Below are positions 46,241 through 57,195 of a stretch of 64,000 nucleotides of DNA, in pieces. How positions within the stretch are numbered: position 1 is the first letter of the stretch; each line of letters starts with the position of its first letter. Source of the stretch: an archaeon. Lineage in GTDB: Archaea; Micrarchaeota; Micrarchaeia; Norongarragalinales; UBA97. The notes beneath the pieces are model-generated. The model was not told the DNA's origin. It was given only the letters and a program-made list of their open reading frames with translations, and did not search any database. Position numbers and translations under genes: made by a program. The stretch lies in contig JAGVFW010000003.1 in NCBI GenBank assembly GCA_020057405.1, positions 32,001-96,000 on the forward strand. The letters are read 5' to 3'.

Positions 46241-46732
46241 TTACTGCGATTTTACGATTGCAATTTCCTTCTCTTCCCGCTTGAGCTCGCGCAAGGCCTT
46301 CTCAAACTCGCTCACGTCGGCAAACTCGCGGTAAACGGATGCAAAGCGGATGTAGGCGACCTTATCAAGCGCCTTTAGGTGCGCCATCACCTTTTCCCCA
46401 ACCTGGGCGCTTGCGACTTCCTCGGACTCGCTGCCAAAGCGGAGTTCGGCCTCGATTTCTGCAACAGTCTGGTCAACTTGCTCCATGCTGACTGGACGCT
46501 TGTGACAGGCCTCAACCAGGCCCTTTCGCAGCTTTAGGGGTGAAAACGTCTCGCGCCGGCCGTCTTTTTTGATGACGACTAAGTCGGGCGCCTCGACACG
46601 CTCGTAAGTGGTAAAACGCTTGCCGCAAGCCTCGTTTAGGCACTCCCGTCTGCGGCGGTTTGTTACCTCTCCCTCGGCCTCTCTTTTGTCGAGAACCCGC
46701 GTTTCAACGTGCAAACAAAACGGACATTTCAT
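46241..46732 (-). CDS. nrdR: Transcriptional repressor NrdR
   Basis: MKCPFC, RRRREC, KRFTTYE, VIKKDG, VAYIRFASVY; start reassigned to 46732. Confidence 0.95.
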   Translation of the reverse strand: MKCPFCLHVETRVLDKREAEGEVTNRRRRECLNEACGKRFTTYERVEAPDLVVIKKDGRRETFSPLKLRKGLVEACHKRPVSMEQVDQTVAEIEAELRFGSESEEVASAQVGEKVMAHLKALDKVAYIRFASVYREFADVSEFEKALRELKREEKEIAIVKSQ

Positions 46733-46775
46733 GTAAATTCCCCACCAACATGGCACACGCCAAACAAGTGCCCCA

Positions 46776-46823
46776 AAACCACCAGTTGTGCCATACAACT
46801 TAATGAAACACAAGCTTTTGTGG
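46776..46823. promoter_or_regulatory. Candidate pair of NrdR boxes
   Basis: ACACAAGCTTTTGTGG (46808-46823) and weaker AAACCACCAGTTGTGC (46776-46791), 32 bp apart, between the TATA and the nrdR start. Confidence 0.5.
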
Positions 46824-47013
46824 TTTTGCGTCATTCTCAACGCTATTCTAGTTTAAATAAGTTTCGGCTTTCTTCAAGAATATCCCGCCGTTTTAGGGAA
46901 AAACGCGTAGTGCTTTGGTGCGTACGAGAAGTTTGGCGGTTAGGCGCCGATGCTCACTCGGACAAGGTACGGGCGCAAGCAATGGTAAAGTTTATTAATG
47001 GTATTTTTTATAA

Positions 47014-47250
47014 ATGGTAGGTGGTTTTGTGGAGAATGTGAGTGTTGACAAGTCGGGCCGCTTCGTTATTCCAAAGAAGGTGCGAGCCGAGTTTGACACC
47101 AACGTGTTTTCAGTAGAGGTGGAGAAAGACGCCATTGTCTTGCGGCCGAAGAAGGGCCTTAGGGGACTTTTTGGCACGTTTCCGGACCTCGACATGAAGG
47201 AATTCGAGAAATGGAAGAGGGAGGAAGTAGAACGTGAGAATTCTTCTTGA
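47014..47250 (+). CDS. vapB: AbrB/MazE-type antitoxin
   Basis: VDKSGRFVIPKKVR...IVLRP; overlaps the PIN gene. Confidence 0.85.
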   Translation: MVGGFVENVSVDKSGRFVIPKKVRAEFDTNVFSVEVEKDAIVLRPKKGLRGLFGTFPDLDMKEFEKWKREEVERENSS

Positions 47251-47608
47251 CGCTTGGGCCATCCTTGAACTCATCAAGGGCAGCGACAAGGGCGCAAAAG
47301 TGGAAGAAATCGTGCGCGATAGCACGCTTGCCTGCACCACTTCCCTAAATCTCTACGAAGCGAAATACAAGCTTACCGGCCGGTACGGCGAGGCCAGAAT
47401 CGACAAAATGCTCGATGAAGTCAGGGCAACAACCCAAATCCTCCCAATCACCGAAGAAGCCGCGCTTGCGGCAGCGGAAGTAAAGCTGCAGCAAAAGCAG
47501 CTAAGCGCAGTTGACTGCAACGCTTATGCTGTCGCCCGGCTCCACAAACTAGAATTCGTTACAGGCGACAAGGGTTTTACCGGACTCGAAGGCGTCGTGC
47601 TGGTCTAA
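47234..47608 (+). CDS. vapC: PIN-domain toxin
   Basis: ILLDAWA, NLYE, LSAVD, VTGDKGF; stop codon is part of repeat R1. Confidence 0.9.
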   Translation: MRILLDAWAILELIKGSDKGAKVEEIVRDSTLACTTSLNLYEAKYKLTGRYGEARIDKMLDEVRATTQILPITEEAALAAAEVKLQQKQLSAVDCNAYAVARLHKLEFVTGDKGFTGLEGVVLV

Positions 47609-47620
47609 GTGCAGGGGGAG
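47603..47620 (+). repeat. Junction repeat R1
   Basis: GTCTAAGTGCAGGGGGAG, then hairpin GACTCTAG-N7-CTAGAGTC. Confidence 0.9.
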
Positions 47621-47766
47621 CGACTCTAGCTTCTTACTAGAGTCTGAAGCACCGGGCAGTTAACCCCACAAAACGTTGTTTTTTATGCATGCCAAACAAT
47701 CGCGCCCCTCTAGGCGTAGTCACTTAGAACGATTAATTTAAATAGGCGTAGTCACCTATTACTACT

Positions 47767-48705
47767 ATGCACGTTGAACTCCGCAAGGCTGGCGAGGGTC
47801 GTAAGTTCTACTTGGCACACTCATACCGGAGAGGCAAGAAAATAGTCAAGCTCCGCATCTACCTTGGCGCGAACCTTTCCCCCGATGAAATAGTGGAGAA
47901 AAAACACCTTGCCGAAAGCACGCTTCGCTATCGTGTCGATGCCAGCGCTGCCATGAGCGACCCGTTTGAAACCGCGCTTTCCAAGGGTGAGCTCGAGGAG
48001 CTTAAGACGCTTGAGGCCAAGGGAGAGCTCGCCATCAAGCACTTGTCCGAGGAGGACTGGCGCAACTTTACCGAAGCGTTCACTTACGACACGAATGCCA
48101 TCGAAGGCTCCACCATACTCCGGGAAGAAGTAGGGGACATCCTCGAGCGCGGGAAGTGGCCGGACAAGCCGAAGGGAGACATATCCGAAACGTATGGCGT
48201 GGCGAAAGCCATCGAACACGTAAGAAAAACCAAGGAGCACATCTCGCTGCCGCTGCTTTTAGAATTGCACCGCATAGTTTTCCTGAACTCTAAGCCGTAC
48301 GCGGGAAAGTTCAGGGCGCGCGGAGTGGAAGTAGTCGTGGCGGACGCATACGGGAATATCCTGCATCGCGGCGCCCCTTCGACGCAAGTGCGAAAGCTCC
48401 TAAAGCGGCTGGTGGAATGGTACGGGAAGAACAAAAAGCGCTACCCGCCACTAGTCCTCGCCGCCGTAGTGCACAACCAGTTCGAGAACATCCACCCGTT
48501 TCAGGACGGCAACGGGCGGGTCGGCAGGCTCTTGCTCAATAATATCCTGCTCAAACACGGGCTGCCGCCGCTCAACATCGAACTGCGCAACAGGCACGAA
48601 TACTACGCGGCGTTGCAGGCGTACGAGCACAAGCATGACATCCGGCCCACAATCCAGCTCATGCTCAAGGAATACCGTGCTCTCAAGAAACTCCTCAAGA
48701 GGTGA
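47767..48705 (+). CDS. Fic-domain protein
   Basis: TNAIEGS, HPFQDGNGRVGR; N-terminal KFYLAHSYR...IYLG domain. Confidence 0.92.
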   Translation: MHVELRKAGEGRKFYLAHSYRRGKKIVKLRIYLGANLSPDEIVEKKHLAESTLRYRVDASAAMSDPFETALSKGELEELKTLEAKGELAIKHLSEEDWRNFTEAFTYDTNAIEGSTILREEVGDILERGKWPDKPKGDISETYGVAKAIEHVRKTKEHISLPLLLELHRIVFLNSKPYAGKFRARGVEVVVADAYGNILHRGAPSTQVRKLLKRLVEWYGKNKKRYPPLVLAAVVHNQFENIHPFQDGNGRVGRLLLNNILLKHGLPPLNIELRNRHEYYAALQAYEHKHDIRPTIQLMLKEYRALKKLLKR

Positions 48706-48743
48706 CTACACCGCACAATTTTGTAGTCACCCAAAACAGCGTG

Positions 48744-48797
48744 CTTCTAGCCCTAGTCTAAGTGCAGGGGGAGTAAGCTTAGACCTGGACTAAGTGC
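48744..48797 (+). repeat. Junction repeat R2 (both arms)
   Basis: CTTCTAGCCCTAGTCTAAG-TGCAGGGGGAGTAAG-CTTAGACCTGGACTAAGTGC. Confidence 0.9.
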
Positions 48798-48855
48798 ATA
48801 CCGAAACGAAAGCACGATAATGCCGAATGTGGCAAAGCCAAATAAAAAGTGTCTC
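48798..48855 (+). repeat. 58-bp direct repeat X1
   Basis: 53/58 identical to 49921-49978. Confidence 0.9.
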
Positions 48856-48874
48856 GAGTTTGAGCGGACTTGGG

Positions 48875-49816
48875 CTATGCGCGCTTGTCGTGCCCGTTTT
48901 CGGCTTGTTCTTCGGGTTTCAGGATCGTGTACTGCTCAAGCAATTGCTGGGAAAGAAAGCTCGCGAAAGGCTTTTGGTTTCCCTTGTCCGCTTCTTCGAT
49001 CGCGTTGTAGTATTGTTCCTTGTTTCTCGTTTCAATGATTGCCGGCGGGAATCGATTCCGCATGAGGATCCAGTTCATCAACAGCCTTGACGTGCGACCG
49101 TTGCCATCGGTGAAGGGATGGATTTGAACGAACCCATTGTGCAACCATGATGCCAATTCTACAGGATGAAGCGCGCGCTTATTTTTTTGATATTCCTTGA
49201 AGAGTTCGCCCATCAACCGCGGTACGTCCTTTGCTGCCGGAGGCTTCCAGTCCGAACCGCCGATTCCGACTTCACTGTCGCGGTAATCGCCTTGAATCCT
49301 GCACGTCGTGTTTTTCGTGATCTCAAACTGTATTTTGCACGCGAATTCCTTGTTCACCTGTCCCTTGTACGACTTGACGAATTCCCACGCATCCTTGCCG
49401 TTCAACACCTCGATGACGTCGTTCGTCTTTACGCCTTGCGGCGCGATTCCTTCGGAAAGAATGAGCGCGGTTTGCCGCAAGGTGAGCGGATTGCCTTCGA
49501 TCGCGTTCGTGTTGTACGTAAAGCGCACGAGAAAATCGCTCGGCACCATGCCCTCCGGAAAACCCTTGAACGCGACTACGGCTGAATGCAAGTCCTCGAG
49601 CCGATCTTCCGCTTCCTGCGACAGCCACTTCGCCTCGTAAGGCTTCGGCGCCTTTCGTTCAAGCTCTGAAAAATACTTTTGCAACTCATCGTGGCCTGGC
49701 ACTTTCCTCCCCAAAAACACCCGAACTTTGCTAACCTTGGTGGGAGAAAGGCGCACGCTCTTGACGAGGTAGAAATAGTCGTGCTTCCCGTGCCTCTGCT
49801 TCTCGATAAACGCCAT
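48875..49816 (-). CDS. Fic-domain protein
   Basis: TNAIEGN, HPFTDGNGRTSR; N-terminal YFYLVKSVR...FLG domain. Confidence 0.92.
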   Translation of the reverse strand: MAFIEKQRHGKHDYFYLVKSVRLSPTKVSKVRVFLGRKVPGHDELQKYFSELERKAPKPYEAKWLSQEAEDRLEDLHSAVVAFKGFPEGMVPSDFLVRFTYNTNAIEGNPLTLRQTALILSEGIAPQGVKTNDVIEVLNGKDAWEFVKSYKGQVNKEFACKIQFEITKNTTCRIQGDYRDSEVGIGGSDWKPPAAKDVPRLMGELFKEYQKNKRALHPVELASWLHNGFVQIHPFTDGNGRTSRLLMNWILMRNRFPPAIIETRNKEQYYNAIEEADKGNQKPFASFLSQQLLEQYTILKPEEQAENGHDKRA

Positions 49817-49920
49817 AATATGGCTACATCTTCAAACTATTTAAATATTGTGGTCATAATGCCTACTTTTACGCGCCTAATATAAATTGTAGCCATACGG
49901 ATTAATCTCGAGGGGAATTT

Positions 49921-49978
49921 ATACCGAAACGAAAGCACAGAAATGCCGAATGTGGCAAAGTCGAATAAAAAGTGTCTC
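49921..49978 (+). repeat. 58-bp direct repeat X2
   Basis: ATACCGAAACGAAAGCAC...AATAAAAAGTGTCTC. Confidence 0.9.
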
Positions 49979-49987
49979 TGCTTTTGG

Positions 49988-50731
49988 TTAAATCAAGTGA
50001 AGACCCGAAGCCAAAGCAACTAACCCCGAAAGCAAGACCAAAACCAATGAAATTTTCCTAAATAATTCGTCATCGACCTTGTGGACGATTGCCATGCCTG
50101 CAAGAGAACCTACGACCATTGCCGGAAAAAGCATAATCGTATAATTAATCACCTCGTTCGTAAGCAGGCCGTTCACAAAATAGAACGGAATCGTGAGAAG
50201 AAAGAGAACTGAAAAATAGGCGACTAAATCGGCGCGAAAATCATCTTTTTTTGTCCCTTGGTTTGCTAGAAAGAGCACTACTGGCGGACCGCTCATGGTG
50301 GTGCTGCCGTTAAGGACTCCACTTGCAAAGCCCGTTATCGCAAATCCCGTCAGCTTATTCTTTATTTCACGCCTGAAGCCAACGATCAACGCCAGGGCGG
50401 TTAAGGCGACTATTGTTCCTGCGAAAATTTTTAGCGTTGCAACGTCCAAATACAAGAGAATCCAAGTTCCTATCGGAATGCCCGCCAACCCGGCAACCAG
50501 CAATGGAAGTATGCGTTTGAAGCTGACGTTACGCCAGACCTGCACTAACACGATGAAATTTATCGCAGTGTTAAGGAGGAGAACTATTGGTATTGCCGTC
50601 TTTGGAGACAAGAAAAGTACGAGGAGTGGAACCGATACAAGGGCAAAACCAAATCCCGTCAAACCATAAGTCAAAGCAGCCAGGAGGATTATTGCAAACG
50701 CAAAAACAATCGGGATAGAAACTTCAAACAA
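49988..50731 (-). CDS. TauE/SafE (TSUP) family transporter
   Basis: GLTGFGFALV, GIPIG, SGVLNG...SGPP; about 8 TM segments. Confidence 0.88.
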   Translation of the reverse strand: MFEVSIPIVFAFAIILLAALTYGLTGFGFALVSVPLLVLFLSPKTAIPIVLLLNTAINFIVLVQVWRNVSFKRILPLLVAGLAGIPIGTWILLYLDVATLKIFAGTIVALTALALIVGFRREIKNKLTGFAITGFASGVLNGSTTMSGPPVVLFLANQGTKKDDFRADLVAYFSVLFLLTIPFYFVNGLLTNEVINYTIMLFPAMVVGSLAGMAIVHKVDDELFRKISLVLVLLSGLVALASGLHLI

Positions 50732-50870
50732 GGTAATTCAACTCTGCCAATTTACATTATCGCTCAGTTTGTTTAAATAGTGCCTAATGCCCTTTCGTTG
50801 ATCACCTAAAAAATGCTGAATTAATTAACGGCCAAATTCTACATTTCTGTGTAACATGAGGGCGAAAAAC

Positions 50871-50923
50871 TTCGGTATACCTTTAGACCAGGTCTAAGTG
50901 CAGGGGGAGTGCTTTGAACCCAC
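50871..50923 (+). repeat. Junction repeat R3 with T-loop-like tail
   Basis: TTCGGTATACCTTTAGACCAGGTCTAAG-TGCAGGGGGAGTGCT-TTGAACCCAC. Confidence 0.88.
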
Positions 50924-50932
50924 GGAATAGGG

Positions 50933-53704
50933 CTACCCGCGGGGGAAGGGGAAGTCGGCCATGAGGCCTACGGGAGTGGTGTTGAAGTTGGTGAAGCCGG
51001 TTGCCAGGACTGCCCCGTTTTGGACGAAGTAGTCGCCTGCGGCGGGATTCCTGAACTGGGGGTCGGCGGTGACTGAATTGACGTCAAAGCCGTATTGCGA
51101 CTGCCATTGGGCGAGAGGGATTTTTGGCGTTCCTACTTGAATCGTATACCTCCCATCAGGCCGGTAAAACGAGTTGTAATCCGAAGCGCTTACTTTGTCG
51201 GATTGCCAGTCTGCAAACTTGAACATGGTGGGATCGAGCGCGTTCGAGGTGGAGGCATAGAAAATATTGCGAGTAATGTTCAGGTGGTGGTTGGGCATGC
51301 CCAGATACGCTTGGAAGAAAGCAAGCTCTCGCGGCTCGTCGGTTGCTACAATGTTGTTGGTGAGCGTGTTGTAATCGCCTTTGATTAAGAAAGTATAGGG
51401 ATTGGTGCGGATGTTGTAAACGAGGTTGTTGCTGACCATATTGTATCCGGACCCATCGTCAAGGTACATGCCAACGGCGAATGGATTGTTGACTTGAGTG
51501 GTCGCGGTAATGTCGTGAATGACATTGTTGGTGATGAGATTGTCCTTGCCGGAACCCCACAAATAGATTCCGCCGCCGTCATGCGTGTCCCGCATCACGT
51601 CCGAAACGTCGTTAAAGGCGATGGTGCCGTTTCTGGCGTAGACGTAATCGCGGTAGTTTTCCTGAGTTGCGTCCGGAATGAAAAGTTTAGTGTAGTTGAG
51701 AGTAAAGCCGAGGTAGAGGATTCCAGCGTAATTTCCGCGGTGGATTTTGTTGAAGGACACGTTGGTCGAGCTGATGCGCGCGAGAAGCATTCCCGCGGCC
51801 CTCGAATAGCGCCGGCCGAAGTCGTAAAAGCGGTTGTTGACAATGCGGTTAAAGCCACTCACGTCGCCATTGCCCGGATAAGGGCCGCCCAATTTGATTG
51901 CATCAGCGCCAAGCTCGTTTAGGTAATTGCCGTAAATGTCAAGGCCAGTAACGTAGAAGCCGCCCGTAATTCCATGAGTCAGTTGCTTGAATTCATTGAA
52001 GCGCACGCGGATGTTGTCGGCGTAGGCCACATGCAATCCCGTGGGCGTGCTTAGCGGCCCGTTGGAATTGGCTGTCTTAAAGCCGTTGCCCATTTCGAGA
52101 GTCAGGCCGCGCAGTTCGATGTTCGACGTTTTTACCGAGGGCGAAGAGCCGGAGACCTGGATTATCCGCTCGATTGTGGGCGCCAGGATTTCCTGCGAGT
52201 CAATCGGCGCGTTTCGCGGCCAGTAGTAAGTCAGGCCGGTCGTCTCGTCGTAGAAAAATTCTCCGGGAGAGTCAAGAAAGTCGAGTGAATTGATGAGGGC
52301 AAACCGGTTGTTGAGTCTTATGACGTAGCTCGTGTTGGCTGACAGGTTGATTGTGCGGGTGGAGAAGTTGACGTAAGTGATGGGAGTTATGTCAACGGCC
52401 CAGTCGTAAACGTAAGAGCCGCTTCCGCCGGGGAAGATGTAGGCCTTGGCACTGGAGTAGGAAAACGTGTCGGGAAGCGCGCCGGACGGGTAGACGAAGC
52501 TCGTGAAGTTGTTGTCGCCATAGCCGGCAACTTTCAGGTAACCTGAATTGGGCGTGCGCGCGGGCACCGCCTCGACGCCATTTTCGTAAAGCGAGTAAAT
52601 ATTGGGGCCTATGTTTGCAACGTAGATGTTGCCTGAATAAAGCGTCCAGCCGGTCGCGGCCTTGGATGCAATCAACCTTGGCTTCTCGCCGTAGTAGTTG
52701 CGCCAAATAACGCGATAGCCGTTCTTTCCGGAATCCGGGGGCTGGAGCAAAAGCCCGCTCGTAAGGTAGTACTTCCCACCTCGAAGAAAGACAACCGCAT
52801 TAGAGGTCATTCCGGAAGTGATGTTGGTGCGGATTGTAGTCTGGGCTTTTGAGAGTGTTAGGAATGGTGCGGTTAGTGTGCCGGGGTTGTTGTCATTGCC
52901 GTTTGTTGCAACGTAGAAGAAGACTGTCGAGTCGCAGGCGTCGCCCACGCCATTCTCGTCCGCATCCCATTGGTTGGCGTTCGCCACTGACGGACAATTG
53001 TCAACTGAATCGAGCACGCCGTCGTCGTCTGAGTCGGGCGGGGGCGTCGGAGTCGGCGTGGGAGTGGGAACGCAGGAGGGGCACGGTGTTGGCGTGGGTG
53101 TAGGCGAGCCGCTTGGCGTGGGGCTCGGCGTTGGGCTGCTGTTTGGAGTTGGCGTTGGGCTTCCTTGCGGGCCCGGAGTTGGGGTCGGCGATGATGTTGG
53201 CCGGGGGGTGACTATAGGGAGAGTAGAGTTCACGCAGTGCTCGGCAGGCGCGATTGATATTCCTTCGCAGCTGGCGACACACACGTTAAAGTAAGTCCTG
53301 CCGTCAGAGCCGCAGACCGGCGTGTAAACGCTTGGGCAAGCGCATGGGTCGGGCGTAGGTGTTGCCGTCGGCACCGGAATCGGCTGGACTGAAGGCATTG
53401 GCGTGGGCGTTGGGCTGGGCGTCACGATTGGCGTTGAAAATAAGTCGAGTCCCCGCAAGCCGAACAGGTTTTTGCCTAGCTCGCGAATTTTGGTGACGAT
53501 TTTCATCTGCGCATCCACCATCTGCTGCGCAACAGAAACAATAGGATGATACTCCGATTGCGTAGGCGGGGAAGAAACGATGAAGAAAGAACCTGCGAGT
53601 GTAATGTAAGCCAAAACCGCGATTAGAAAAACGATTGTAAAGGCCGACGCCGCACTTTCGCCTAACCTACCGCGCAGCGCCTCCAGCTCTTCCCAAAAAT
53701 CCAC
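50933..53704 (-). CDS. Membrane-anchored surface protein: PT linker, Kazal, TSP3 repeat, right-handed beta-helix (paralog B)
   Basis: N-terminal third closely similar to 38127-41069; DGGGIY, GMYLDDGS. Confidence 0.82.
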   Translation of the reverse strand: MDFWEELEALRGRLGESAASAFTIVFLIAVLAYITLAGSFFIVSSPPTQSEYHPIVSVAQQMVDAQMKIVTKIRELGKNLFGLRGLDLFSTPIVTPSPTPTPMPSVQPIPVPTATPTPDPCACPSVYTPVCGSDGRTYFNVCVASCEGISIAPAEHCVNSTLPIVTPRPTSSPTPTPGPQGSPTPTPNSSPTPSPTPSGSPTPTPTPCPSCVPTPTPTPTPPPDSDDDGVLDSVDNCPSVANANQWDADENGVGDACDSTVFFYVATNGNDNNPGTLTAPFLTLSKAQTTIRTNITSGMTSNAVVFLRGGKYYLTSGLLLQPPDSGKNGYRVIWRNYYGEKPRLIASKAATGWTLYSGNIYVANIGPNIYSLYENGVEAVPARTPNSGYLKVAGYGDNNFTSFVYPSGALPDTFSYSSAKAYIFPGGSGSYVYDWAVDITPITYVNFSTRTINLSANTSYVIRLNNRFALINSLDFLDSPGEFFYDETTGLTYYWPRNAPIDSQEILAPTIERIIQVSGSSPSVKTSNIELRGLTLEMGNGFKTANSNGPLSTPTGLHVAYADNIRVRFNEFKQLTHGITGGFYVTGLDIYGNYLNELGADAIKLGGPYPGNGDVSGFNRIVNNRFYDFGRRYSRAAGMLLARISSTNVSFNKIHRGNYAGILYLGFTLNYTKLFIPDATQENYRDYVYARNGTIAFNDVSDVMRDTHDGGGIYLWGSGKDNLITNNVIHDITATTQVNNPFAVGMYLDDGSGYNMVSNNLVYNIRTNPYTFLIKGDYNTLTNNIVATDEPRELAFFQAYLGMPNHHLNITRNIFYASTSNALDPTMFKFADWQSDKVSASDYNSFYRPDGRYTIQVGTPKIPLAQWQSQYGFDVNSVTADPQFRNPAAGDYFVQNGAVLATGFTNFNTTPVGLMADFPFPRG

Positions 53705-53797
53705 GCTAGGCTAACGCCAAGGGAATTTAAGAACAGAACGGCTCTCTGCTGTCGAAACACTAATGGAAAAGAAAAAAAGCGCATAGCTAACGGTGGA

Positions 53798-53879
53798 ACT
53801 CGAAGGCATCGTGCTGGTCTAAGTGCAGGGGGAGTACGCTGAGACGTCGTCTAGAAGCGGACTTTGCGAGACACAATTG
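53798..53879 (+). repeat. Junction repeat R4, preceded by a copy of the vapC 3' end
   Basis: 53798-53834 matches 47584-47620 at 36/37; right arm CTGAGACGTCGTCTAGAAG; tail shared with R5. Confidence 0.9.
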
Positions 53880-53963
53880 ATTCGTTGATTAATATAGTCC
53901 TAAAATCAATTATTCTTGACAGAGGGAATCAACTTGATTTTGCGTCCAAGAACTTTAAAGTCA

Positions 53964-54707
53964 ATGGCTGAACAACTAGCCCAATTGCCCCCTCAAAGAC
54001 GGAAAGTAGTGGTTTTAGTCGGTAGACACCTAAATGAAGGGTCAGTAAACTTAGCAAACAGGTGTCATGAATCTTGGGGAAAAAAAGGCGCGGTCACCAT
54101 CCAACTTCCAGTGGACTGGACTCCAGAAGGTTTTTGGCATAGTGCGATGCAACGAAATCTCACTGCTGAAGAAGTAGAGAATGAAGCGAAAGCTATTCCT
54201 TCAGATGAGGCTATTTTAGACTTTCTCTTCAAAAGAGGATTTCGAATTCCGGTTCTAAATATCCACGGCGCTGGACACGAGGCGCGCGATATAACTAATT
54301 CTTCTGCGGAAACTGCCGAGAATAGGGAAAAAATCGAGACTGAACGGACTCCGACAACAAGCATAACCACAGGTAATAAAACGAGAATTTTCGAGCACAA
54401 ACTCATTCGCCATCACTATGGTAATATTGAACATCCTAACGAAATTTTGATAGAAATATATTATGGCGGATCTAAAAGAAATACTAAATCTCTAGAATAT
54501 GCGGTAGGTTTGGATCCGCATTCGAGACTCGCAGTTAACAATTCTCCGAGTTATATTGCAAAAAGATACTTGCGCGGCATCGTTATCAACCGCGGTTCAC
54601 TTGAGCGCCTTCACAAGGACGTGACTCCGAAAATAGAAGAACTGATTGAACACCTATCAAAAACCGGTCTAAAAGCAAGGCTTGGAAAAAGAGACTATAT
54701 TCGCTGA
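53964..54707 (+). CDS. Hypothetical protein, possible M14/AstE-like Zn hydrolase fold
   Basis: VVVLVGRHLNEG (HxxE), VLNIHG, ILIEIY; low GC; ATG at 53964 preferred over TTG at 53916. Confidence 0.5.
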   Translation: MAEQLAQLPPQRRKVVVLVGRHLNEGSVNLANRCHESWGKKGAVTIQLPVDWTPEGFWHSAMQRNLTAEEVENEAKAIPSDEAILDFLFKRGFRIPVLNIHGAGHEARDITNSSAETAENREKIETERTPTTSITTGNKTRIFEHKLIRHHYGNIEHPNEILIEIYYGGSKRNTKSLEYAVGLDPHSRLAVNNSPSYIAKRYLRGIVINRGSLERLHKDVTPKIEELIEHLSKTGLKARLGKRDYIR

Positions 54708-54753
54708 AATTGTGTCTCTGGATATGAAAACAAGTCGTTGGCGACAAGGTCTG

Positions 54754-54834
54754 CTTCTAGACCTGGACTAAGTGCAGGGGGAGTGCGCTTAGACGCGGTC
54801 TAGAAGTGGACTTTTCGAGACACAATTGTGTCTC
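54754..54834 (+). repeat. Junction repeat R5 (53-bp imperfect palindrome) plus 18-bp perfect palindrome
   Basis: CTTCTAGACCTGGACTAAGTGCA-GGGGGAG-TGCGCTTAGACGCGGTCTAGAAG; GAGACACAATTGTGTCTC at 54817-54834. Confidence 0.92.
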
Positions 54835-54868
54835 AATCTATAAGTAGTCTTGTTTCACAAGTGATAGT

Positions 54869-55204
54869 ATGCGAATATCCTTTCGGGCTTTTGAACACCG
54901 TTATCCTGGCACCTATGGGACGAGCATGCTTTCTGCCAACGAACTGAGAGAAGCGAAATCGCTGAGGACATTCATAACTCGCAAAAAGTACGAAGATGCT
55001 ACTCGAGGAATTCCAAAAGGAAATCCAAAAATCGTTCGCGTCTTGGGTGAGATTTTTATCATCGACGGCCATCATCGAAGTAGGTTTGCCGTAGATCGCG
55101 GGGAAGGAATCACGGTAGAGCATTTCGAAACTGACTCTAAAGCACTCAAATTTATTTTGGATAAAAAGGCAAAAGCCAAGATTGGAGGAGTGGAAATTCG
55201 TTGA
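54869..55204 (+). CDS. Small ParB/sulfiredoxin-like domain protein
   Basis: PKIVRV...FIIDGHHR motif. Confidence 0.65.
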   Translation: MRISFRAFEHRYPGTYGTSMLSANELREAKSLRTFITRKKYEDATRGIPKGNPKIVRVLGEIFIIDGHHRSRFAVDRGEGITVEHFETDSKALKFILDKKAKAKIGGVEIR

Positions 55205-55227
55205 TGAACGAAAAACGAGGCAGTACA

Positions 55228-55257
55228 CTTCTAGATGTTGTCTAAGTGCAGGGGGAG
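55228..55257 (+). repeat. Junction repeat R6
   Basis: CTTCTAGATGTTGTCTAAGTGCAGGGGGAG. Confidence 0.9.
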
Positions 55258-55280
55258 CGATTTGAACTCTTGAACGCCGT
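55246..55280 (-). pseudogene. Degenerate tRNA(Leu)-like 3' fragment
   Basis: Minus strand GGCGTTC-AAGAG-TTCAAAT-CGCTC-CCCCTGC-A; T-stem pairs only 3/5; no 5' half. Confidence 0.55.
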
Positions 55281-55285
55281 TGAGT

Positions 55286-56206
55286 TTAGCGCTTTTCGCC
55301 CTGCCAAAGCGAGACGAATTCCTTGTAGTTTCGGGCAACCATCTCGACTGCTTCCTCGCGCGAGTGCTTGCCGTCCTTCAGGCCCGCCAGGGCGTCCCAG
55401 AAGATGGTGCGGCCGACTGCAAAACCGATGATACCGGGAATTTTGGCGCCAACGGAAAGCCATTCCTTGACTTTTTCCTTGCTTTCGCCGCGGCCGAGCG
55501 TGATGACGCCGGCTTTCCTGCCGTTTGCCTGCGCTTGGGCGACTATTGCACGCGCGTCCTTTGGCGAATCAACGCCCTCCATCTTCCAGACGTCGGGCTC
55601 GACGCCTGCGGCCTGGATGTCGGCCATTGCGCGGACCATGAGCTTGGGGCGAAGTTGGGAATCGTAAGCGGCCTTGTCCCCATTGAGTTTCGCCAACTGG
55701 TCGGCGGTCGCGGGGACGAGGAGCTCGAAGAGGTAACCCCGATTGGTGCGCTCGAGGTATTCGCCGAGGGTCTTGAGGCGGGCGAGCTGGCGCTTGTTCA
55801 TCACGGCATCAGCTTCGTGGTTGTAGCGCACGAGCACTTTTGCGAATGCGGGTGCAAAGTCTTCTAGGTGGTGGCCGAATGCCCCGCCGTACTCGAAGTC
55901 AAACTCGTCCTGACCGCTTTTCTCAACGGGCATGGCGAAGTTTACGCCATTTGCTCTCGCGTCGACCGCGATTGCCGCGCCGAACTGCTCGTCAACGAGA
56001 ATGCCTGCGATGGGCTTTGGCACGCCATCGGCAATCGCCTTTGAGAAGCCCTCGTAGACGACTTTCTTGAAGTCGCAAATGCGGGAAGTCTCTGCCACGG
56101 TAGGCGGGCGTCCCTTGATGCCGAATAGCTTCTCCATGAACGACCCGCGGTGGTCAAACGCGAGAATGAGCAGCTGCCGCTTAGTAAAGTCCTTCTCCAA
56201 TGCCAT
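55286..56206 (-). CDS. DUF2090 (IolC C-terminal-like) class I aldolase-fold protein
   Basis: LAFDHRGSF, GILVDEQFG, KVLVRYN, FELL, PDVWKMEG, GFAVGRTIF. Confidence 0.85.
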   Translation of the reverse strand: MALEKDFTKRQLLILAFDHRGSFMEKLFGIKGRPPTVAETSRICDFKKVVYEGFSKAIADGVPKPIAGILVDEQFGAAIAVDARANGVNFAMPVEKSGQDEFDFEYGGAFGHHLEDFAPAFAKVLVRYNHEADAVMNKRQLARLKTLGEYLERTNRGYLFELLVPATADQLAKLNGDKAAYDSQLRPKLMVRAMADIQAAGVEPDVWKMEGVDSPKDARAIVAQAQANGRKAGVITLGRGESKEKVKEWLSVGAKIPGIIGFAVGRTIFWDALAGLKDGKHSREEAVEMVARNYKEFVSLWQGEKR

Positions 56207-56238
56207 CTAAACCATCCCCCAAAATTGAATTCAAATTA

Positions 56239-57195
56239 TTAATGCGAGTGCCTGTGAATTGCCTCGACGTAGCGAACTGTGCCGCTTTTTGCGCGCATGA
56301 CGACGGAATGCGTGCGGATTACACCATGCGGCTCAAACGCTACGCCCTTAAGAAAAGTGCCGTCGGTGACACCAGTTGCCACAAACATTGTTTCTTTCCC
56401 GCCGGCCAAGTCCTCGAGCTTGAGAATCTTGTCGGGGTCGGCCAAGCCGTAGTCGATTGCGCGCTTGCGTTCCTCTGGATTGCGGAAGGCAAGCCTGCCC
56501 TCCATGTAACCGCCCAAGCACTTCATTGCCGCCGCGGCAAGCACGCCCTCTGGTGCCCCGCCGATGCCAAAGAGGGCGTCGACGTTTGAGCCCGGCATTG
56601 CCGAGGCGATTGCACCGGAGACGTCGCCGTCGCCGATTAGTTTTATGCGCGCACCGGCTGCTCGCACGTCGTCTATGAGTTTTTTGTGCCTCTCGCGGTC
56701 GAGGATGACGATTGAAAGCTCGTTAACTTCCTTCCCCGTCTTCTTGGCAATGCTTTTCAGGTTCTCGCCAACGGACCTTTCAAGCGAGACGGCATTGCCG
56801 ACGATGGGGCCGACGGCGATTTTCTCCATGTAAGTGTCGGGAGCATTAAGCAGCTTGCCGTGGGGTGCTGCTGCAAGAACGGCTAGTGCGTTTTCCCCGC
56901 CCCTTGCGGTGACGCCGGTGCCCTCAAGGGGGTCAACAGCGATGTCGATTTTCATGCCCTTGCCCGTGCCGACTTTCTCGCCGATGAAAAGCATTGGCGC
57001 CTCGTCCCGCTCGCCCTCGCCGATGACTACGGTACCCGCAATGTCGATGAAGTTGAGCCGCTCGCGCATCGCGGTGACTGCTGCCTGGTCTGCCGAGTTG
57101 CTGTCGCCCTTGCCTGCCCACTTTGATGCGGAGATGGCTGCGGCTTCGGTAACGCGAACGAATTCTAGAGCGAGATTCTTATCCATTTCCACCAA
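56239..57195 (-). CDS. glpX: Class II fructose-1,6-bisphosphatase
   Basis: RVTEAAA, IGEGERDEAPML, DPLEGT, APDTYMEK, GAPEGV, ATGVTDG. Confidence 0.95.
   Translation of the reverse strand: MVEMDKNLALEFVRVTEAAAISASKWAGKGDSNSADQAAVTAMRERLNFIDIAGTVVIGEGERDEAPMLFIGEKVGTGKGMKIDIAVDPLEGTGVTARGGENALAVLAAAPHGKLLNAPDTYMEKIAVGPIVGNAVSLERSVGENLKSIAKKTGKEVNELSIVILDRERHKKLIDDVRAAGARIKLIGDGDVSGAIASAMPGSNVDALFGIGGAPEGVLAAAAMKCLGGYMEGRLAFRNPEERKRAIDYGLADPDKILKLEDLAGGKETMFVATGVTDGTFLKGVAFEPHGVIRTHSVVMRAKSGTVRYVEAIHRHSH

Follow-up and report, generated by a model that had tools for sequence, protein, structure and literature searches.

Serial integration at a tRNA gene, with partial tRNA repeats left behind, is a well-known mechanism class. 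Casposons target tRNA 3' ends and have inverted ends, direct repeats and tandem copies; cis-mobilisable elements (CIMEs) of streptococci are formed by site-specific accretion next to integrative and conjugative elements (ICEs), of which they are described as decay products. The attC sites of integrons contain boxes with the consensus GTTRRRY, and an 11-7-11 layout is typical of tyrosine recombinase core sites. In the tycheposon islands of Prochlorococcus, partial tRNA repeats accompany the insertions and older insertions are pushed outwards (10.1101/2020.12.28.424599). DPANN archaea have tiny genomes, and their gain and shuffling of accessory genes are poorly understood. Here, an island of repeats and gene-sized modules is described from such an archaeon. 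It lies between nrdR and a DUF2090 gene in a 64,000-nt stretch of a Micrarchaeota genome (positions 32,001 to 96,000 of contig JAGVFW010000003.1, assembly GCA_020057405.1), and this whole stretch is called the window below. An earlier note, made from the sequence of the window alone, had regarded the island as a candidate undescribed cassette-capture system. The island is read here, with a probability of about 75%, as a tyrosine-integrase accretion array of integrase-less cassettes with crossover inside an 11-nt tRNA-derived core; we infer that the integrase is supplied in trans. The word "undescribed" in the note goes too far: the mechanism class is an old one, and the miniaturised integrase-less form of the cassettes, their arm classes and the host lineage appear to be new. 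A literature search (supplements not covered) found no paper on tRNA-Leu-anchored cassette arrays in Micrarchaeota or DPANN archaea, and none on miniature two-armed integrase-less cassettes, on such arm classes or on a zinc-ribbon integrase clade.

The genome that contains the window (G000) is a 90.6% complete metagenome-assembled genome (MAG) of 1.22 Mb in 17 contigs (C-numbered). It was compared with 61 genomes of the same Micrarchaeota order (G-numbered) and with metagenome contigs (L-numbered loci). As in tRNA-targeting integrative elements, including tycheposons, the attachment (att) core is a tRNA 3' end, partial tRNA copies flank the inserts, newcomers insert beside the tRNA and displace older ones outwards, the cargo is accessory, and autonomous members have an integrase beside the att site (G057:C6). 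The tRNA 3' end is present as core at both ends of inserts (the C11 and C16 junctions given below; R3 and R6 of the window), and occupied and empty alleles are found (L093/L065, L063/L079, and G001 without the island). The present units differ from those elements in being mostly 0.46-2.9 kb and single-gene, with no integrase or replication module in any of 39 small segments; in having two-armed sites of ~160 bp, in at least three arm classes with just 11 nt in common; and in their DPANN host and an integrase clade with a C-terminal zinc ribbon. An integrase inside the element is therefore seen in relatives and is lacking in the window cassettes and in all 39 small segments. Like CIMEs, the cassettes are att-bounded DNA without recombination genes of their own, presumably relying on the integrase of a related element; unlike CIMEs, many tiny units are present per array and the genome has no resident integrase-bearing partner. 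Similarity is also seen to archaeal XerA and to the integrative mobile elements exploiting Xer (IMEX), as the recombinases of the relatives are closest to Xer and the class-A core has an 11-7-11 structure like dif-type sites. However, the recombinases score far under the XerA cut-off of 220, a tRNA end serves as the site, and the enzyme is accessory, being found in 31 of 61 relatives; instead of a universal Xer and one dif per replicon, 17 sites are found in the genome.

Six copies of an 18-nt pattern, G(T/A)CTAAGTGCAGGGGGAG, are present in the window, all on the + strand, at 47603, 48756, 50892, 53817, 54766 and 55240 (R1 to R6). All six co-oriented cores of the earlier note are thus exact, and none of 100 dinucleotide-preserving shuffles of the window contained a match. 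The core-to-core spacings are 1153, 2136, 2925, 949 and 474 nt, with genes inside, and every core sits at a gene boundary, as had been claimed. The facing arms, which had been read as 15 nt apart at R2, R4 and R5, were recovered as the inner inverted repeat GTCTAAG-N15-CTTAGAC at R2 and R5 and, with one mismatch, at R4. By the repeat finder, R5 has inverted arms of 31 nt each, 77% complementary, with 7 nt between them, and R4 and R5 are 89% alike over 66 nt on their right sides. R1 and R4 have 37 nt in common at 97% (36/37 nt), comprising the final bases of a PIN gene and the core.

The suspected resemblance of the core to a tRNA-Leu 3' end is borne out: its final 11 nt, TGCAGGGGGAG, are the reverse complement of that end, exact over 11 nt. 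This 11-mer matches tRNA-Leu(TAG) at C11:147075-147159 and also tRNA-Leu(CAA) at C16:59045-59170, a gene with a 44-nt intron that was missed by ARAGORN and was scored at 37.8 bits by Rfam. The right flanks of R6 (27/30 nt to tRNA-Leu(TAG)) and R3 (25/30 nt to tRNA-Leu(CAA)) continue the match into the T-arm; those of R1, R2, R4 and R5 match tRNA-Leu at 15-18 of 30 nt, in the core only. No tRNA was found in the window by ARAGORN, and none by Rfam at E up to 0.1 in 46500-56500.

In the whole genome, 18 copies of the 11-mer are found. Seventeen have arms or a tRNA body beside them and are placed at five loci, two of which are at real tRNA-Leu genes:

Window island: six sites
C1: two sites, between uvrA and a second MazE-PIN pair
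C11:147166-148653: three sites, an array at tRNA-Leu(TAG)
C11:90761: one site
C16: five sites, including the tRNA-Leu(CAA) junction at C16:59177

The island of the earlier note is one of these five loci, and the real tRNA-Leu anchors lie outside it. A generic repetitive extragenic palindromic (REP) or terminator element, which the note had named as the result that would speak against it, is ruled out, as the arm motifs occur nowhere in the genome outside the att loci.

When all copies were compared side by side, the 11-mer was the only sequence common to all sites. The sites are hybrids, in which conserved arms of at least three classes (A, B and C) are freely combined around the core. Flanks other than arms can be called chromosomal, and consist of a PIN 3' end on the left or a tRNA-Leu fragment on the right. 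In class A, the left arm of ~72 nt ends in CTTCTAGAC-N3-GTCTAAG, and the right arm of ~75 nt is composed of TGCGCTTAGAC-N3-GTCTAGAAG, the palindrome GAGACACAATTGTGTCTC and a TATA-like CTATAAGTA. Class B has the left arm CAGACTCTAGAAAGA-N7 and the right arm (C/T)(G/A)ACTCTAGAA..ACTAGAGTCTG; class C has GCGCTCTGAGACCAG on the left and TAAGC..AGACCTGGACTC/AAG.GCA on the right. The class-A core region reads 11-7-11, that is GTCTAAGTGCA / GGGGGAG / TGCGCTTAGAC; no symmetry of this type is seen around the core in class B. Class-A arms are kept over ~72 and 75 nt in many contigs while the cargo varies, and viral contigs gave 0 matches to the class-A pattern. In the following list of the window features, B denotes a chromosomal flank and P an arm:

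46241-46840, - strand: nrdR (Pfam ATP-cone and Zn_ribbon_NrdR), left neighbour of the island, syntenic in G001
47014-47250, + strand: MazE-like antitoxin (Pfam MazE_antitoxin, 1.1e-4)
47234-47608, + strand: PIN toxin (Pfam PIN, 1.6e-15)
47603-47653, core 47603-47620, + strand: R1, PIN 3' end on the left, class-B right arm CGACTCTAGCTTCTTACTAGAGTCTGAAGC; type B-core-P'
47767-48705, + strand: Fic1, 312 aa, cargo of cassette 1 (Pfam Fic, 4.1e-20; PADLOC SoFic, 5.4e-33)
48737-48800, core 48756-48773, + strand: R2, class-A-like left arm GCTTCTAGCCCTA, class-C right arm TAAGCTTAGACCTGGACTAAGTGCA
48875-49816, - strand: Fic2, cargo of R2-R3 (Pfam Fic, 6.8e-22)
49988-50731, - strand: TauE/SafE permease, cargo of R2-R3 (Pfam TauE, 8.3e-32)
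50860-50925, core 50892-50909, + strand: R3, cassette left arm CTTCGGTATACCTTTAGACCAG, partial tRNA-Leu 3' fragment on the right; type P-core-B'
50933-53704, - strand: 923-aa secreted-type protein, cargo of R3-R4 (Pfam beta-helix, Kazal and thrombospondin-3 (TSP3))
53795-53910, core 53817-53834, + strand: R4, copy of the PIN 3' end ACTCGAAGGCATCGTGCTG on the left, class-A right arm with GAGACACAATTG at 53868
53916-54707, + strand: 263-aa protein, cassette cargo, family unrecognised
54706-54850, core 54766-54783, + strand: R5, complete class-A site, 60-nt left arm, right arm with the palindrome GAGACACAATTGTGTCTC
54869-55204, + strand: 111-aa protein, cassette cargo, possibly ParB/Srx-like
55222-55290, core 55240-55257, + strand: R6, class-A-like left arm CACTTCTAGATGTT, partial tRNA-Leu 3' fragment on the right
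55286-56206, - strand: DUF2090 gene (Pfam DUF2090, 4.2e-32), right neighbour of the island, with synteny in G001

The arrangement of sides from R1 to R6 is the one expected from reciprocal recombination at a central core, with attL-, attP- and attR-type hybrids. The left (B) flank of R1 is made up of the last ~22 nt of the PIN gene, and its right-arm type is also seen in relatives and metagenome contigs. The segment from R3 to R4 has a tRNA-like flank on its left and the PIN 3' end copy on its right, and the right flank of R6 runs into the 3' end of the DUF2090 gene.

Cores with at most one mismatch to the 18-mer occur in 11 of the 61 genomes of the order. From the metagenomes, 38 contigs were obtained; on inspection, a tRNA-Leu body or a recognisable arm adjoins the core in 24 and neither does in 14. 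Arrays ending at tRNA-Leu are seen in L089 (five exact cores and one with a mismatch), L093 (three cores) and, with four cores each, in L064, L087, G021:C3 and G055:C6. Comparison of the interval between nrdR and DUF2090 across relatives, suggested by the earlier note, revealed different content: in G001, of the same genus, the island is missing and two unrelated genes are found without any core.

Exchange of partners at the core is seen in several of these contigs. L057 and L085 have 2,282 nt of left flank in common, with 98-100% identity per 100-nt bin over the 1,000 nt nearest the core, and to the right of the core identity drops at once to 20-40%, which is the random level. L092 and L085, scored likewise, have 2,861 nt of left flank in common and show the same drop. 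Between L093 and L065, 287/292 nt match on the left and 114/120 nt from the 18-mer rightwards, the six rightward differences all falling in the 7 nt that directly precede the 11-mer; in L065, one additional cassette of 1,139 nt is found between two cores, and the two loci form an occupied/empty pair. L063 has a tRNA at the position where L079 has a cassette. The left arm of R3, at the end of the TauE segment of the window, has other partners elsewhere: a tRNA in L081, a class-A arm in L064 and a class-C arm in L088. Copies of the Fic1 cassette with 75-79% nt identity occupy differing positions in the arrays of other contigs, and the cassette adjoins the tRNA in G003 and L094. Because the two arms of a site are inherited independently of each other and the change of partner falls precisely at the core, the crossover is, on these sequence comparisons, placed inside it.

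Tyrosine recombinases (PF00589) gave 59 matches in 31 of the 61 genomes, and were present in 11 of the 22 high-quality ones. Their presence in just 31 of 61 genomes indicates an accessory gene and not a universal housekeeping Xer; a universal XerA-type resolvase seems to be lacking or undetected in this order. An 11-mer core is found 479-529 nt from the start of the domain in at least 8 of the 59 matches, with the domain in every case directed away from the core and the linked genes beginning ~80 nt from it (150 of 192 cores were covered, and for 13 of the 59 matches a contig end is no more than ~750 nt away). These loci are G021:C23, G007:C68, G007:C69, two in G020, G029:C25, G008:C27 and G057:C6. 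A ninth is a fragment in L071, where the recombinase N-terminus lies 100 nt after the core at the contig end, and in G014:C50 the domain is 1,049 nt from a core. An arm is placed between core and recombinase gene in 7 of the 8 linked loci, of class C in G008, G020 (568 kb), G029 and G057, of class B in the G007 loci and of class A in G021:C23; the G020 locus at 432 kb showed no recognisable arm class there. G057:C6 holds a complete element of 6.5 kb, in the order tRNA-Leu, core, left arm, 405-aa recombinase, 1,424-aa cargo, right arm, core. The linked recombinases are Xer-like, with XerA_Arch as the best NCBIfam model at 89-106 bits against a cut-off of 220. A C-terminal zinc ribbon was found in four of five, and in a tree of 13 sequences the class-C-linked ones cluster (93/98). 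The family is large in Micrarchaeota records, where it has generic names only. Of the two enzymes that had been proposed, the tyrosine recombinase with a 7-nt GGGGGAG overlap between 11-nt inverted core sites is thereby strengthened, such genes adjoining the core in relatives.

The sole tyrosine recombinase of the window's own genome (C17:34150-35298, 382 aa) was considered as the array enzyme and rejected. It belongs to a 5.3-kb element at tRNA-Phe (C17:33577-38934), with 21 nt of the tRNA-Phe 3' end (CAAATCACCCCTGCGGCATTC) directly repeated at its two ends, and in the same tree it forms with its G005 homologue a separate clade (100/100) without zinc ribbon. This element also encodes a 167-aa protein of no known family. 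A tblastn search with four tRNA-Leu-linked recombinases as queries gave nothing further in the genome, and no Cas1, Y1 transposase or serine recombinase was matched in this 90.6%-complete assembly.

Forty-three non-redundant stretches between co-oriented cores were collected, 39 of them 463-2,914 nt and the other four 4.6-9.7 kb in length. The open reading frames (ORFs) of the 39 small stretches, 52 in number, were scanned together with one recombinase as positive control: an integrase family was matched by the positive control only and by none of the 52, and no recombinase fragments were found in the 39 stretches. Among the 25 most frequent of 56 cargo families, the commonest are Fic (5), ParE (2), PIN (2 by PF01850 and 1 PIN_3) and methyltransferases, and HEPN, nucleotidyltransferase, TauE, ArsR and GNAT were matched once each. 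The picture of a tandem array of small recombinase-less cassettes, bounded by sites derived from the tRNA-Leu 3' end, is therefore upheld.

In the favoured reading, the six repeats would be att sites of tRNA-Leu-targeting tyrosine integrases and the intervening DNA a stack of integrated cassettes. A circular cassette with a P-core-P' site (~160 bp in class A, with 11-nt inverted sites around GGGGGAG) would meet a resident core, either in a tRNA-Leu gene or in an existing hybrid site, and integration would give B-core-P' ... P-core-B'; repeated insertion would make the array grow. Recombination between two direct cores would excise the DNA between them, ordinary chromosomal DNA included; the beta-helix segment, flanked by B sequences, is a possible example. 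The reversed flank types of R3-R4 could arise by excision and reinsertion between direct cores of neighbouring arrays. Having no integrase, the cassettes would depend on an autonomous element of the same arm class acting in trans. Class-A right arms bring palindromic operator-like and TATA-like boxes with them, suggesting that the cargo is probably expressed from its own promoter; at R5, the TATA-like TCTATAAGTA at 54837-54846 lies 30 nt ahead of the ATG at 54869.

Several observations weigh against this reading. The cleavage positions and the 7-nt overlap are deduced from symmetry alone. The two ends of the Fic1 cassette differ in class (at R1 the right arm is of class B, at R2 the left arm is class-A-like), and a hybrid site at C16:54550 combines a class-B left with a class-A right arm; to produce such mixed cassettes and sites, either recombination across classes or subsequent deletion is needed. 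The 90.6%-complete genome yielded no cognate integrase, and the array may therefore be currently frozen. The array of the window stands away from any tRNA gene, and the reading offers no account of its arrival at the PIN 3' end. Copies of Fic1 are 75-79% identical, compared to 72-78% for core genes, so the cassette may be old and vertically inherited. Finally, the alternative junction in any single contig pair could in principle be an assembly chimera at a repeat.

Some of these observations also fit another explanation, in which complete integrase-bearing elements entered one after another at tRNA-Leu and their integrases, with the bulk of their genes, were later deleted. The units would then be short remnants between att scars, and present variation would come from homologous recombination of the 100-160-bp arms and not from movement of the small units in trans. 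Besides the missing integrase and the core-like divergence of Fic1, the mixed-class cassettes and a 21-nt stub at C16:52736/52768 resemble deletion products, and a 58-nt repeat copy without a core at 49921 suggests a decayed junction; comparable remnants are described for tycheposon islands (10.1101/2020.12.28.424599). Against this explanation, the two arms (72 and 75 nt) have been retained around unrelated cargo in many contigs, which argues for selection on the sites. Nor does it agree with the complete lack of an integrase or fragment in 52 ORFs and 39 small segments, with segment sizes bunched tightly at 0.46-1.6 kb, or with L093 and L065, which differ by one whole cassette and switch inside the 11-nt core. 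This explanation is considered unlikely, although it is the most serious of the rivals. Far less probable is a transposon of the casposon kind or of another cut-and-paste type, with the arms as terminal inverted repeats and the core as a target-site duplication at tRNA-Leu, to which the earlier note had given a 15-nt duplication. Inverted arms beside an 11-18-nt direct repeat at a tRNA 3' end do mimic the casposon layout, and target, inverted ends, direct repeats and tandem copies are all alike; the same arrangement is accounted for equally well by site-specific recombination. Cas1 and Y1 transposase are missing from the genome, Cas1 occurs in 6 of the 61 relatives with no listed core closer than 20 kb to it on its contig, segments of 0.46-2.9 kb are too small for a casposase plus polymerase, and the linked enzyme is a tyrosine recombinase. 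The casposase model of the note is therefore abandoned, and among the explanations weighed it is the least credible.

Integrons offer a closer comparison. Like integrons, including archaeal ones (PMC9668308), the present arrays consist of small, mostly single-gene cassettes without their own recombinase, with palindromic sites and a cargo rich in toxin-antitoxin parts and modification enzymes. It could thus be supposed that the palindromic sites fold as single-stranded DNA (ssDNA) like attC and are recombined by an IntI-like enzyme. The full R5 site does form a long imperfect ssDNA hairpin (-31.7 kcal/mol, z -7.4), Fic, methyltransferases and GNAT are akin to integron cargo, and integrons with canonical attC sites are reported from Archaea (PMC9668308). 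In contrast to integrons, no IntI is found beside the array, the window having no tyrosine recombinase and the genome only that on C17; the linked recombinases of relatives reach 38-51 bits with the integron-integrase model TIGR02249, whose cut-off is 265, and align to nothing beyond its N-terminal and central part, which ends near model position 170 of 315. Instead of attI, the end of a tRNA gene is the anchor. A whole attC travels with one integron cassette; here the arms segregate independently, the palindrome halves belong to different neighbouring cassettes, and the switch is at the centre, which would be the loop of the fold and not the stem base. Single-arm sites are common (R1, R3, R4, R6), and the inner repeats GTCTAAG/CTTAGAC are unlike the GTTRRRY box. 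Instead of promoterless co-oriented cassettes, three cargo genes of the window are on the + strand and three on the - strand, and the cassettes appear to have promoters of their own, to judge from such features as the TATA-like box before the start. The text of PMC9668308 that could be consulted does not contain the word tRNA. An integron-like mechanism is accordingly judged very improbable. A CRISPR array is ruled out, since the gene-holding spacings of 474-2925 nt compare with expected spacers of 25-50 nt. Checked by hand, neither description fits the island, in agreement with the note.

If the cassettes move in trans as the accretion reading supposes, a simple, sequence-defined system of gene capture would exist in a DPANN lineage, and its 11-nt tRNA-derived crossover, three arm classes and candidate enzyme clade would be directly testable in vitro. 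It would also be a second, independent answer to the integron problem, based on double-strand att recombination at a tRNA end in place of folded attC. The core and arms can also serve as a key with which to search Micrarchaeota genomes for variable islands, and account for some of the assembly breaks at such islands. A bolder proposal, held only tentatively and at somewhat less than even odds, is that Micrarchaeota possess a cassette platform convergent with integrons: self-promoting, mostly single-gene and integrase-less cassettes with two-armed ~160-bp attP-like sites, a lineage-specific clade of zinc-ribbon Xer-like integrases acting in trans, stacking at tRNA-Leu genes and secondary cores, excision and capture of chromosomal DNA at these cores, and a role as a main route of gene flux. 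Were it true, that route would carry much toxin-antitoxin and Fic-type defence cargo in these reduced symbiotic archaea.

The genes of the window agree for the most part with their first labels. Pfam matches support nrdR, MazE/PIN, both Fic proteins, TauE, the beta-helix protein and DUF2090, and both Fic proteins also match the PADLOC families SoFic and PDC-S04. The label "M14-like" for the 263-aa protein finds no support: no Pfam, NCBIfam, PADLOC or PDB match was found and the best atlas score was 0.84. For the 111-aa protein, "ParB-like" retains a weak atlas lead (score 0.91 to a cluster with ParB_N in 28% of its members) and gains no Pfam or PDB match. The beta-helix gene was considered as an ancestral resident of the interval between nrdR and DUF2090, and this was rejected, since it has no similarity to the 791-aa protein of G001 in that place. 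The stop codon (TAA) of the PIN gene lies inside the R1 core (window 47603-47608), and 22 nt of the PIN 3' end are repeated ahead of R4; with this copy in front of R4, insertion at PIN leaves the gene end intact. No degenerate core is visible upstream of MazE in 46780-47080. A direct repeat of 58 nt, 91% identical, is present immediately beyond Fic2 and TauE on their 3' sides, at 48798-48855 and 49921-49978. The first copy extends the class-C right arm of R2 and the second has no adjoining core, so the R2-R3 segment may be two cassettes whose junction decayed.

Further observations concern other loci. At C16:52736-52768 (L108:1737-1769), two cores are 32 nt apart, start to start, with a 21-nt right-arm stub between them, which looks like the product of deletion or aberrant recombination. 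At C1:11490-12945 (L020), the two sites between uvrA and uvrC are directly adjoined by the second MazE-PIN pair, in which PIN has 29% identity to the PIN of the window. Toxin-antitoxin pairs seem, from these two gene neighbourhoods, to accompany the arrays, and PIN, ParE, HEPN and nucleotidyltransferase domains turn up repeatedly in the cargo. Past the tRNA-Leu(CAA) junction, C16 finishes in a 99-mer that is identical at the ends of C8 and C12 and represents a de Bruijn graph junction. The common sequence starts at GTCTTTCACGATAACTATGG, implying that a multi-copy element was left unassembled. The first or last 80 nt are also common to C1/C2, C4/C11 and C5/C9/C14, and the ends of C9 and C13 resemble what we take to be sequencing-adapter remnants. 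In a relative (L016; G020:C1, ~652.5 kb), the tRNA-Leu beside a core has an apparent insertion of ~50 nt in the T-arm region, which may be a non-canonical intron.

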